DNA of 64,000 nt from Escherichia coli (GTDB lineage Bacteria > Pseudomonadota > Gammaproteobacteria > Enterobacterales > Enterobacteriaceae). Below are positions 15,001 to 18,000 of the stretch, in pieces. The stretch is taken from NCBI RefSeq assembly GCF_030013205.1, contig NZ_CP122648.1, one strand, 5' to 3'. The position numbers are program-made. Within the stretch, counting starts at the first letter, position 1; every line of letters starts with the position of its first letter.

Positions 15001-18000
15001 TATCCCGATGATTACCGGGGCGACAATCCTGTGCTTCTCCTTTACCGGTTTTGACGGCATCAGCAATCTGTCGGAAGAAACCAAAGATGCAGAGCGCGTG
15101 ATCCCGCGCGCAATTTTCCTGACCGCGCTGATTGGCGGCATGATCTTCATCTTTGCAACTTACTTCCTGCAGCTGTACTTCCCGGATATCTCTCGCTTTA
15201 AAGATCCGGATGCGTCACAGCCTGAAATCATGCTGTACGTTGCGGGTAAAGCGTTCCAGGTTGGCGCGCTGATCTTCTCCACCATTACCGTACTGGCGTC
15301 CGGTATGGCGGCGCACGCAGGCGTAGCGCGTCTGATGTACGTAATGGGTCGTGACGGCGTGTTCCCGAAAAGCTTCTTCGGTTATGTACACCCGAAATGG
15401 CGTACTCCGGCAATGAACATCATCCTGGTTGGCGCGATTGCCTTGCTGGCAATCAACTTCGACCTGGTAATGGCTACGGCGCTGATTAACTTTGGTGCGT
15501 TGGTGGCGTTCACCTTCGTTAACCTGTCGGTCATCTCGCAGTTCTGGATCCGTGAGAAGCGTAACAAGACGCTGAAAGATCACTTCCAGTATCTGTTCCT
15601 GCCGATGTGTGGTGCGCTGACCGTTGGTGCGCTGTGGGTTAACCTGGAAGAAAGCTCAATGGTTCTGGGTCTGATCTGGGCGGCTATCGGCCTGATTTAC
15701 CTGGCTTGCGTAACCAAGAGTTTCCGCAACCCGGTTCCACAGTACGAAGACGTAGCGTAATCTTACAAACCGGATGACATAATCATCCGGTAAATCTCAA
15801 AAAGCCGGAGTTTGTCGCTCCGGCTTTTTTGTGCACAGAAACCCCCCAGCTAGGCTGGGGGTTCCGGAAAGCTTTCAGCTTTAAGCCAGTTATTAAAACC
15901 CCTTTTGATTTGTTAAAACACCTTGCGGTCTGGCAACTGCAAGTGTCAAACAAGAAATCAAAAGGGGGTCCCAATGGGGAACGAAAAGAGCTTAGCGCAC
16001 ACCCGATGGAACTGTAAATATCACATAGTTTTTGCGCCAAAATACCGAAGACAGGTGTTCTACAGAGAGAAGCGTAGAGCAATAGGCAGTATTTTGAGAA
16101 AGCTGTGTGAGTGGAAAAGTGTACGGATTCTGGAAGCTGAATGCTGTGCAGATCATATCCATATGCTTGTGGAGATCCCGCCCAAAATGAGCGTATCCGG
16201 CTTTATGGGATATCTGAAAGGGAAAAGCAGTCTGATGCTTTACGAGCAGTTTGGTGATTTGAAATTCAAATACAGGAACAGGGAGTTCTGGTGCAGAGGG
16301 TACTACGTCGATACGGTGGGTAAGAACACGGCGAAGATACAGGATTACATAAAGCACCAGCTTGAAGAGGATAAAATGGGAGAGCAGTTATCGATTCCCT
16401 ATCCGGGCAGCCCGTTTACGGGCCGTAAGTAACGAAGTTGGATGCAAATGTCAGATCGTGTGCGCCTGTTAGGGCGCGGCTGGTAAGAGAGCCTTATAGG
16501 CGCATTTGAAAAACCTCCGGCTATGCCGGAGGATATTTATTGTTTCAGACGATCTCTTCCGCGTACTGCCAAAGCGCTTTTAACAGCGCCACTTTTTCTT
16601 TATCGTCGGCATACTGCTGCGCCAGCATCTGAATCTCTTCTGCATAGCCTTGTAAAAACTCTGGCGTGAAGACCTGGCGGCGGTGCTCCAGCCAGCGTTG
16701 CTGCTCGGCATAATCCAGCGTCCCCGGGAAGTTGCGTGCCCGATAATTGAACAACAGTTTTTCAATTCGTTTATCAACAAAAGTGATATCCAGTGCCGGT
16801 AAATTACGCGGCTCGGTTTCCAGCACAATTTTCATTGCTGCACGATCTGCGTCACTGAAAAAGCCGTTATAAAGCTGTGCATCCACGTTATCTGAAGGCG
16901 TAAACGGTTCGGCTTCCGCGAATATCGCCACCACTTTTTCACGCACTTGCGGATTTTCACGCAGAATTTTCAGGTTATCGAGGCAATGCTGACGATTAAT
17001 TCCCAGTCGGTCGACATCTTCCGGGCGTAGCGTATTCGCCTGGGCCAGCACCGGACATTTATTGATGTGTACCAGTTTAACCGGAACGGCGGCGTTATCG
17101 CCAAGATCGGCTTTTGCGGTATATAGACGCTCGCGCAATGTGTCGCTATCCAGTTCCAGTAATGGCGAAATGTCTCCTGCCAAATCCACCATAATTACGG
17201 CATTGCGATTTTCAGGATGCCACGCCAGCGGTGCCACCCAGCTTGTATTGCCGCGCCATGCCCCAAACATTCCGGAAACGTGAACCAGGGGTTTCATCTG
17301 CGGAACATCAATCAACGCCATCAGTTTGTGTTTATTACGATGGGTAAAGAGATAATCAAACAGGCGTGGCTGACGCGTTTTTACCAGTTTTGCCATCGCA
17401 ATAGTGGCGTACACATCAGCCATCGCATCGTGTGCGTTGCTATGTTCAATACCATTCGCTTTGGTTAAATGCTCAAGGCGAAAGCTCGGTAGACCGTCAT
17501 CATTTTCAGGCCAGTTTATTCCTTCCGGGCGCAGGGCATAACAGGCACGCATAACATCCAGCAAATCCCAGCGCGAGTTATCATGCTGCCAGCTCCAGGC
17601 GTAAGGATCGTAGAAATTACGATAAAAAACGTTGCGTGTGACTTCGTCGTCGAAACGCACATTGTTGTAGCCCAGAATACAGGTCTTCGGTACGGTAAAA
17701 AGCGAGTGAATACGGGCGGCAAACGCAGCTTCGTTTTCTCCTTTCGCCCGTGCTTCCTGCGGGGTAATACCGGTAATTAATACGGCTCCTGGCTGGGGTA
17801 AATAGTCATCCGCGGGCTTGCAGTAAAAGACTTCGGGTTCGCCGATGACATTGAATTCGCTATCGGTGCGAATGGCTGCGAACTGTGCAGGGCGATCTAA
17901 CGCGGGGTGCGTGCCAAAGGTTTCGTAATCGTGAAACAAAAAGGTAGATTGTTGCTTACCGTCATTCATCATTAGGTTAAATCCGTTATTTCTGCTATCT

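Follow-up and report, generated by a model that had tools for sequence, protein, structure and literature searches.

We analyzed a 64-kb stretch of Escherichia coli DNA (hereafter, the window) in which plaP and sbcB converge on a gap of 784 bp at positions 15761–16544. plaP (yeeF; 14402–15760, (+) strand), encoding a putrescine/H+ symporter, was identified by tblastn (100% identity to K-12 PlaP residues 1–452), by a Pfam AA_permease match, and by the RefSeq plaP annotation of the identical locus in K_EC180. The convergent downstream neighbor sbcB (exonuclease I; 16545–17972, (−) strand, stop codon at 16545–16547) was identified by tblastn (98.7% identity to K-12 SbcB residues 1–475), Pfam matches to RNase_T and Exonuc_X-T_C, and RefSeq annotation. 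K-12 MG1655 has the order sbcB–tsuB(yeeD)–tsuA(yeeE)–plaP, in which 1,520 bp separate sbcB from plaP, and DNA similarity between the window and K-12 breaks off at 15762 and picks up again at 16547. Both the extent of the gap and the location of yeeD/yeeE in K-12 agree with a first-pass annotation of this DNA. Its further claim that the gap holds only an IS200-type gene needs amending: an intact Y1 transposase gene is indeed present, but so is a native spacer of 73 bp with a hairpin and a bidirectional terminator. To say that an IS occupies the yeeE/yeeD slot is misleading, since the genes were not replaced by the IS, which entered a short spacer with a terminator.

The gap consists of two parts, the 73-bp native spacer (15761–15830 plus 16542–16544) and a 711-bp IS200C (15831–16541). 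The left 70 bp of the spacer (15761–15830) belong to a haplotype without tsuAB; they are 100% identical to genomes with an empty site and show no similarity to K-12, and the right 3 bp (gtt, 16542–16544) were assigned by comparison with that empty site. Folding of the left part revealed a first hairpin (ACCGGATGA CATAA TCATCCGGT; 15769–15791) and a predicted bidirectional intrinsic terminator of plaP and sbcB (A-run, GCCGGAG…CTCCGGC, T-run; 15799–15830), whose T-run is the IS target; as DNA, 15761–15835 folds with −23.4 kcal/mol (z = −9.6). In K-12, too, plaP is followed by a CCGGAG/CTCCGG hairpin flanked by A- and T-runs; this motif with its runs is the only feature that the 73-bp spacer shares with the intergenic segments of K-12, and no alignable homology was found between them.

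The IS lies on the (+) strand, with plaP upstream in the same orientation, and was delimited by comparing empty and filled sites; its ends are ambiguous by 1–2 nt because T residues flank both junctions. It has neither terminal inverted repeats nor a target duplication, starting with GTGCACAG and ending with TATTTATT, and all 17 other IS200C copies compared were likewise 711 bp long and ran from GTGCACAG to TATTT(A/T)TT. Its identity was judged against copies annotated as IS200C in RefSeq genomes, 10 of which differ from it at 1–9 of 711 nt (0.1–1.3% divergence). At IS nt 12, the copy has a private A-to-C change, immediately upstream of the left-end hairpin (CCCCCAGC TAG GCTGGGGG; 15843–15861, (+) strand), a fold whose position matches IS200 nt 12–34 (PMC4513863). 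By analogy, this would be the subterminal hairpin bound by TnpA; in Salmonella IS200, the left-end hairpin is a terminator that blocks incoming transcription (PMC4513863). The left end also carries a full-length match (15841–15964, (+) strand) to the IS200 RNA element STnc490 (Rfam RF01405; tnpA 5′UTR plus art200 region), which scores 140.6 bits (gathering score, 56; E = 2.7e-30), and a longer 5′UTR stem-loop (15899–15967, (+) strand) that is predicted to sequester the tnpA Shine-Dalgarno sequence (AAGGGGGT) and corresponds to IS200 nt 69–138 (PMC4513863). The hairpin and the stem-loop fold with z = −5.6, so the characteristic upstream palindromes reported earlier are real by folding as well as by the RF01405 match.

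tnpA (15974–16432, (+) strand) encodes an intact 152-aa Y1 (HUH) transposase that matches Pfam PF01797 (Y1_Tnp) with E = 3.8e-38 over profile positions 2–121 of 121; the HUH motif reads HIH (residues 61–63), and a C-terminal Tyr at 125 is the candidate catalytic residue. The K_EC180 locus is identical to the window here, its tnpA being annotated as WP_000526135.1 (IS200C family transposase), and a public assembly collection contains the exact tnpA sequence in 21,686 of its indexed blocks. No tnpB was found within the 711 bp, where tnpA is the sole Pfam-supported ORF and the other listed ORFs overlap either tnpA or the left end. The right-end hairpin (CCTCCGGC TAT GCCGGAGG; 16514–16532) is followed on the (−) strand by TTTTT, lies 12 nt past the sbcB stop codon, and gives a terminator-like match on that strand (16532–16514) with the tail TTTTTCAAAT. 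Weak Rfam matches to Ysr202, ncr1175, and UCA1 scored far under the respective gathering thresholds, and we discounted them as look-alike hairpins. The element shows these features of the IS200 group of the IS200/IS605 family: a Y1 gene, no inverted repeats or target duplication, subterminal hairpins at both ends, the left-end RNA element, tnpA only, and a length of ~700 bp; by its sequence, the element is an ordinary IS200C, already catalogued and already annotated in RefSeq. No further IS200 copies were found in the window, which apart from three tRNA-Asn genes and a 131-nt pair contains no repeats.

The IS begins directly after the terminator T-run and leaves only 3 nt between its right end and the sbcB stop codon. 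Specifically, the empty site reads ggctttttt|gtttcag and the filled site ggctttttt|GTGCACAG...TATTTATT|gtttcag, and deleting 15831–16541 from the window restores the empty-site sequence base for base. EC15 and PM06121 carry this empty arrangement (plaP, 73 bp, sbcB, reading ...ggcttttttgtttcagacg). An artificial IS-free junction query found no empty-site genome of the clone to which the window belongs in the collection, and because the nearest empty-site flanks are only 98.3% identical, the state just before the insertion in this exact lineage has to be deduced. By differences per 400 bp, the window is about equally far from K-12 and from two empty-site strains, with the 3′ end of sbcB divergent from all three.

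Next, we counted the allelic states of the locus among 5,426 complete E. coli genomes. tsuAB is present between plaP and sbcB in 4,209 genomes (78%), the same 73-bp spacer with neither tsuAB nor IS in 783, and IS200C within that spacer in 431, which together cover all but three genomes (5,423 of 5,426). An artificial empty-site query returned 1,213 genomes, compared with 1,214 from the sum of 783 and 431. These counts fit mutually exclusive tsuAB and short-spacer states. Direct plaP–sbcB neighborhood without tsuAB is thus a minority arrangement (~22% of the complete E. coli genomes, with JJ1886 and a derivative of Nissle 1917 as examples) and not that of most lineages. An intact yeeDE pair elsewhere was not found, in that tblastn gave no hit in the window and the states sum to 5,423 of 5,426; from these counts, we infer that tsuAB is absent from the rest of the source genome as well.

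Could the IS have removed the two genes? The first-pass annotation raised this as one of two alternatives, and the IS does sit at the K-12 position of both genes, with K-12 similarity breaking exactly at the ends of the gap. However, the 783 genomes that lack both tsuAB and the IS have the identical 73-bp spacer, which shows that tsuAB was not deleted by the insertion. To that spacer the IS adds a clean 711 bp, and the window holds no tsuAB remnant: K-12 TsuA and TsuB gave no tblastn match better than E = 0.2 in the 64 kb, the K-12 1,520-bp segment showed no DNA similarity there, and no YeeE/YedE-family gene followed by a TusA-like gene, the arrangement sought as a thiosulfate-uptake pair, lies between sbcB and plaP. 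E. whittamii has a near-identical 73-bp spacer, and it and 42 other Enterobacteriaceae species (among the matches listed) are short-spaced, leaving no room for a 711-bp IS. That an IS200 insertion caused or accompanied the loss of tsuA/tsuB is next to impossible, and we reject it. Judging from these comparisons, the absence of tsuAB is an older, common polymorphism, separate from the IS and not caused by it. The second alternative, that this lineage lacked yeeDE, is essentially right, with the refinement that the IS-independent haplotype occurs in 22% of complete E. coli genomes, near-identically in E. whittamii, and with counterparts in other Enterobacteriaceae.

The outgroup scan covered, among the matches listed, two non-coli Escherichia and no Salmonella, E. 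fergusonii, or E. albertii. Among those matches, sbcB and plaP are adjacent in 43 of 73 informative Enterobacteriaceae species, and tsuBA occupies the slot in 21–22. Twenty spacers were read from the 43 loci without tsuBA among the matches listed, and in all 20 a single CCGGAG/CTCCGG terminator with A-/T-runs is the only element. Where the pair is present in other Enterobacteriaceae among the matches listed, TsuA/TsuB identities (80–96%) span about the same range as those of SbcB (83–93%). One of the two non-coli Escherichia (L011) has a third, unrelated sequence after sbcB, where its contig ends. In Salmonella LT2, sbcB presumably lies next to yeeF.

The filled genomes fall into two junction types. 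The window reads ctttttt|IS|gtttcag, a junction found in only 18 genomes, all from pigs and two of them labelled O139:H1; all 18 genomes that share the window's flanks (99.9%) carry the IS. JJ1886, HR5-1, EC69, and Z22-2 read cttttttgtt|IS|ttcag, and this other type, 3 bp away, is that of a group of ~413 genomes to which JJ1886 belongs; its insert exceeds by one T the length expected from the empty site. Since the junctions lie 3 bp apart, the spacer was hit twice independently. By sequence comparison, then, the window insertion is specific to a pig-derived clone, and a second independent insertion is present in the ~413 other genomes. It is very improbable that all 431 filled genomes instead go back to one ancient insertion, spread by descent or recombination, with the window copy being the JJ1886 event. 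The shared spacer, orientation, and element would suit a single event, as would the reputation of IS200 as almost immobile (PMC4513863), but gtt follows the IS in the window and precedes it in the four strains, the flanks of the two groups differ by ~2.5%, and the window copy is 4–9 nt from the copies in those four strains yet only 1–2 nt from copies at other loci in other strains. The pig clone carries 19–33 IS200C copies per genome, compared with a median of 2 places per IS-bearing E. coli genome. Near-identical copies at 16 sites, together with the two hits in the plaP–sbcB spacer, suggest that IS200C has been mobile recently.

Taken as a whole, we are highly confident that the gap is an old tsuAB-less 73-bp spacer with one bidirectional terminator into which one IS200C has inserted, with the absence of tsuAB a separate and older matter and a second independent insertion 3 bp away in other genomes. 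By analogy with studied family members, IS200C would move as a single-stranded circle whose left end would be joined 3′ of a short target in the lagging-strand template, with no target duplication. In the window, the target was the T-run of the plaP/sbcB terminator, and the IS lies in plaP orientation. The composition is consistent with such a strand bias, though indirectly and for a single copy: the (+) strand (tnpA sense) has a GC skew of +0.032 over the 64 kb, positive in 7 of 8 bins, as for a lagging-strand template. As to transcription, the plaP terminator would stay intact upstream and shield tnpA from read-through, and sbcB, separated from its native terminator, would now meet the IS right-end hairpin and T-run.

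The position behind a terminator recurs. At each of the 16 distinct IS200C sites, GTGCACAG is immediately preceded on its 5′ side by a GC-rich hairpin and a T-tract with TT at its end, and the IS starts within a few nucleotides of the 3′ foot of the hairpin in 16 of 16; among random positions preceded by TT or TTTT, only 8.5–8.7% fold as well as this. All sites examined lie between genes and downstream of a stop codon. Tentatively, IS200C may home actively to intrinsic terminators, with TnpA recognizing a GC-rich hairpin and a following TT-terminated T-tract on the single-stranded lagging-strand template. Such a target resembles the right end of the IS itself (hairpin CCTCCGGC/GCCGGAGG plus ATATTTATT) and might base-pair with the AAAA tract that immediately precedes each subterminal hairpin on its 5′ side. 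If true, homing would explain why 16 of 16 sites lie behind terminators and why two hits are 3 bp apart, and it would mean that IS200, supposedly dormant, has undergone a recent expansion in an E. coli clone from pigs.

It is possible, though doubtful, that the position behind terminators instead reflects survival: many T-rich sites would be hit, and only insertions at neutral, transcriptionally shielded intergenic ones would persist. The sites examined, all intergenic and past a stop codon, are those where an insertion is expected to be least harmful, and a preprint reads upstream terminators as limiting transposase expression and so aiding IS persistence. However, selection alone would also allow other positions in the spacers, whereas the starts fall within a few nucleotides of the hairpin foot at all 16 sites, always after TT, and one spacer received two independent hits 3 bp apart. 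In addition, IS608 TnpA is stimulated in vitro by double-stranded DNA next to its single-stranded target (PMC5027513), a plausible physical basis for targeting. The question of survival touches only the choice of site and not the identity of the feature. On published IS200 target specificity, we found no more than a statistical study in which terminators precede IS200/IS605 elements and a note on IS1541, which lies between pheL and pheA in Yersinia; a paper on IS200 regulation mapped no insertion sites.

In comparison with known systems, the prototype IS200 of Salmonella Typhimurium (707 bp) and IS200C are alike in their 152-aa Y1/HUH transposase, length of ~710 bp, and lack of inverted repeats and target duplication, and the window copy has no structural difference from IS200C, being 99.7–99.9% identical to copies annotated under that name; it is set apart by the private nt-12 change and a host clone with many copies. 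IS608 and ISDra2 resemble IS200C in their Y1 transposase, subterminal hairpins, and insertion 3′ of a short target without duplication. They insert at TTAC and TTGAT, respectively, and both carry tnpB, whereas IS200C lacks tnpB and its sites are T-tracts ending in TT, always after a GC-rich hairpin. IS608 and ISDra2, as members of the IS200/IS605 family, transpose by single-strand "peel and paste," with a bias for the lagging-strand template (PMC5027513), and the IS orientation and GC skew in the window fit this bias. No biochemistry of IS200C TnpA was found in the literature covered. At the locus itself, Iguchi et al. 2011 (PMC3158064), who sequenced the flanks of O157-antigen gene clusters, described an IS200-like element between sbcB and yeeF (strain PV57) and also strains without yeeD/yeeE; in contrast to the present analysis, they drew no connection between the two features, left the empty site undefined, and made no mention of recurrent insertion. 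The feature is an annotated copy of a catalogued IS in a polymorphic spacer described in 2011.

In itself, then, the finding matters little. Loss of tsuAB is expected to be mild in effect, as thiosulfate can also enter through the sulfate/thiosulfate ABC transporter. The absence of tsuAB (yeeED), whose products act in thiosulfate uptake (PMC11073785), from ~22% of complete E. coli genomes is a stable, old haplotype and not IS damage, which is relevant wherever K-12 serves as the reference for sulfur assimilation. The plaP–sbcB spacer is a recurrent landing site of IS200C, and its two junction types could be used as clone markers, distinguishing the pig clone from the large group with JJ1886. 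The IS200 group has received far less biochemical study than IS608 or ISDra2, and the strict placement of IS200C behind terminator hairpins supplies concrete, testable substrates for work on how this group chooses its targets.

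The gap between plaP (yeeF), which ends at 15760 on the (+) strand, and sbcB on the (−) strand, whose stop codon lies at 16545–16547, spans 784 bp (15761–16544) and contains a single convincing gene, a 152-aa ORF at 15974–16432 (+) whose match to Pfam Y1_Tnp (PF01797) covers the entire profile (E = 3.8e-38), with its HUH motif at residues 61–63. Folding of the region upstream of the ORF (z = −5.6) revealed an 8-bp/3-nt hairpin (15843–15861) and a long stem-loop (15899–15967) that buries the Shine-Dalgarno sequence AAGGGGGT, as well as a small hairpin; this region also matched the full length of Rfam RF01405 STnc490, the IS200 left-end RNA (140.6 bits; gathering score 56). 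A second 8-bp hairpin, with a terminator-like match, folds close to the opposite (right) end of the IS (16514–16532). The layout agrees with that of Salmonella IS200, which has a terminator at nt 12–34, a stem-loop hiding the RBS at nt 69–138 and an antisense RNA, art200 (PMC4513863). Coordinates, Pfam match and folds thus bear out the first-pass annotation, which had placed an IS200-type Y1 transposase gene with palindromes in a 784-bp gap. Window positions 15400–16900 were 100% identical to 14 pig-derived E. coli genomes, including K_EC180 and the O139:H1 strains W13-16 and P15-25, in which RefSeq labels the gene "IS200/IS605-like element IS200C family transposase". By every sequence-level criterion tested, the element is IS200C, of the IS200 group.

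The first-pass annotation had also, correctly, placed yeeD and yeeE between plaP and sbcB in K-12: the MG1655 order is sbcB-tsuB(yeeD)-tsuA(yeeE)-plaP, with sbcB and plaP 1,520 bp apart. Similarity between the window and K-12 ends at 15762, 2 nt past the plaP stop, and restarts at 16547, within the sbcB stop codon; the CCGGAG/CTCCGG terminator is present after plaP in K-12 as well. Neither TsuA nor TsuB had a tblastn match across the whole 64-kb window. When the gap alone served as the query, some genomes matched just its first 70 bases; in these, EC15 and PM06121 among them, a 73-bp stretch containing neither the IS nor tsuAB lies between plaP and sbcB (empty site, ...aaaaagccggagtttgtcgctccggcttttttgtttcagacg). 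The filled site in the window reads ...ggctttttt, then the IS (GTGCACAG...TATTTATT), then gtttcagacg; set against the empty site, it is therefore that site plus a clean 711-bp insert (15831–16541) with no duplicated target bases. Since 17 further copies, drawn from other loci and from other strains, share this length and run from GTGCACAG to TATTT(A/T)TT, the IS ends are fixed to within 1–2 T residues. Two structures make up the 73-bp spacer, a small hairpin (15769–15791) and a bidirectional intrinsic terminator (15799–15830; fold z = −9.6 for the spacer); the IS lies after the terminator T-run, with 3 nt left before the stop codon of sbcB. Empty sites such as those of EC15 and PM06121, together with the clean insert, rule out the IS as the remover of tsuAB, and with it the earlier suggestion that the insertion was accompanied by a yeeDE deletion. 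The absence of tsuAB is a property of the haplotype, not an effect of the IS.

Counts over 5,426 complete E. coli genomes placed 5,423 of them in one of three states at this junction: tsuAB present (4,209), an empty 73-bp spacer (783, among them the Nissle 1917 derivative SYNB1934) or IS200C within the spacer (431, among them JJ1886). The states are essentially mutually exclusive and exhaustive, because an artificial IS-free junction used as the query retrieved 1,213 genomes versus the 1,214 obtained by summing the last two. The genes for TsuA and TsuB, which take up thiosulfate (PMC11073785), are wholly absent from ~22% of complete genomes, and the IS is present in only about one-third of those.

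The junction in JJ1886, HR5-1, EC69 and Z22-2 reads cttttttgtt-IS-ttcag, versus ctttttt-IS-gtttcag in the window, which puts the gtt trinucleotide on opposite sides of the IS. Differences in IS sequence agree with this split: the window IS differs by 1–2 nt from copies at mepM-lpxM, kdsA-ldrC and one more locus in unrelated strains, versus 4–9 nt from four copies at the JJ1886-type junction. These sequences indicate that IS200C entered the plaP-sbcB spacer twice independently, 3 bp apart. An evenly spaced sample of the ranked genome matches to the gap query (H32–H37) had one score and the same 3-nt longer span throughout; the JJ1886 type therefore makes up almost all of the other ~413 IS-filled genomes. 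Eighteen genomes, every one from pigs, share the junction of the window, and no genome of that clone has an empty site.

K_EC180 and 17 related pig-derived genomes each have 19–33 IS200C-matching places, set beside a median of 2 among E. coli genomes with any and a published average of 2.9 (PMC4513863); such numbers look like an expansion specific to this clone, although the element is usually called nearly immobile. The window copy also carries a private A-to-C change at 15842 (IS nt 12; GAAAACCCCC to GAAACCCCCC) that does not occur in the 10 other aligned copies; it falls within the A-tract immediately 5′ of the left-end hairpin. Should cleavage be guided by this tract, as it is in IS608, excision might be affected.

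We compared 16 distinct IS200C sites (the window, the JJ1886 type, 6 from RefSeq genomes and 8 from public assemblies). All 16 have a GC-rich hairpin (−13.3 to −25.9 kcal/mol) in the 45 nt 5′ of GTGCACAG, followed by a short T-rich tract with terminal TT; among random positions in the window, folding as good was found at only 8.5% of those preceded by TT and 8.7% of those preceded by TTTT. At 14 of 15 annotated sites the IS comes a few tens of bp after the end of a gene in the same orientation, and the next gene is convergent at 12 of 15, its stop codon often 0–7 nt from the IS right end. Terminator-like sequences are likewise reported to be strongly over-represented directly upstream of IS200/IS605 elements (bioRxiv 10.1101/2025.07.22.666184), and Yersinia IS1541, which lies between pheL and pheA (PMC3082878), agrees with the pattern. 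Such a pattern could reflect the survival of harmless insertions rather than targeting, but the precision of the sites to the nucleotide and the double hit in one spacer favour targeting. By analogy, a plausible physical basis would be the stimulation of IS608 TnpA by dsDNA adjoining its ssDNA target (PMC5027513).

IS200C would transpose in the manner of IS608 and ISDra2, whose TnpA cuts out the top strand to give a single-stranded circle and inserts it into the lagging-strand template, 3′ of the target (PMC5027513). The tnpA-sense strand is the (+) strand, and the positive GC skew (+0.032; 64-kb window, one copy) is consistent with that strand being the lagging-strand template. The plaP terminator is kept upstream of the IS, followed by the IS's own left-end terminator, so tnpA would be doubly shielded from read-through; in IS200, the stem-loop and art200 repress tnpA further (PMC4513863), and family analogy suggests the same here. 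On the other side, sbcB has lost its native terminator and would now meet the IS right-end hairpin and TTTTT on its own strand, 12 nt past the stop codon, so a large effect on sbcB is not expected.

A scan of species-representative genomes with SbcB yielded at least 80 Enterobacteriaceae loci, with no Salmonella, E. fergusonii or E. albertii among the matches listed. In at least 43 species, E. whittamii included, sbcB adjoins plaP directly, with one bidirectional terminator in the 20 spacers read (sole terminator, of the form AAAAAAACCGGAG...CTCCGGTTTTTT); the E. whittamii 73-bp spacer is near-identical to that of the window. The order sbcB-tsuB-tsuA-plaP occurs in at least 21 species, plus one cut by a contig end; among the matches listed, these include Citrobacter, Kluyvera, Kosakonia, Lelliottia, Pseudocitrobacter, Superficieibacter, Siccibacter and others, and several genera contain both states. 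Identity to K-12 among the matches listed spans about the same range for TsuA/TsuB (80–96%) and SbcB (83–93%; r ~0.5–0.6). The distribution fits a long-resident tsuBA cassette lost repeatedly, or a deletion allele spread by recombination; within Escherichia, loss or gain would fit. In Trabulsiella odontotermitis (L032 8710–9716), the TsuA match falls into two overlapping pieces (72% and 80% identity), which suggests a frameshifted or decaying tsuA in a cassette still in place.

Another insert (~0.7–3 kb) lies downstream of sbcB in at least eight species, and plaP is absent from the locus in at least six. Non-tsuBA inserts of ~2.8–3 kb separate sbcB and plaP in Raoultella, Klebsiella and Enterobacter spp. 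(L036, L039, L040, L066, L067, L074 and L075), and plaP was not found within 7 kb in three Klebsiella loci (L052, L053 and L073); gene content seems to change at this junction often enough to make it a hot spot in general. In Escherichia sp. MOD1-EC7003 (L011 8428–8709), the sbcB stop is followed by neither the 73-bp spacer nor tsuB, and instead by a different hairpin and unrelated sequence that continues until the contig stops; this could be a third allele or another mobile element. PlaP identity to K-12 is bimodal across genera (L013–L090; 96–100% or 86–90%), independently of SbcB identity (83–93%) and tsuBA presence (e.g., Citrobacter L013 97% versus L014 87%; Enterobacter L037 97% versus L047 88%), suggesting two plaP allele classes common to several species or inter-genus exchange at the locus.

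Elsewhere in the window, a full pdu (propanediol utilisation microcompartment) operon follows tmaR (~21800–36330, by offset from 26398–40930 of retrieved locus L002); two pdu genes are annotated as frameshifted in K_EC180, and in K-12 remnants of the CP4-44 cryptic prophage lie on the opposite side of tmaR. Long repeats, direct or inverted, are limited in the window to three tRNA-Asn (GTT) genes at 43250–43325 (−), 45658–45733 (−) and 47482–47557 (+). Sequence that overlaps the end of the third recurs at 58017–58069 as a diverged, partial copy of 53 nt, perhaps an integration-site scar.

An "IS200-like" insertion between sbcB and yeeF, and strains without yeeD and yeeE, were reported in 2011 (PMC3158064); given that report and the RefSeq gene annotation, the finding itself is already known and ordinary. 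Added here are the exact empty site, the population count for the three states, the recurrence across the family of tsuBA presence or absence at this junction, the two independent insertions at a distance of 3 bp and the hairpin-plus-TT context that is uniform for IS200C. We tentatively propose, as a possibility less likely than its negation, that IS200C homes to terminators by recognising a structure like its own right end and that a pig-derived E. coli clone has seen its recent expansion.
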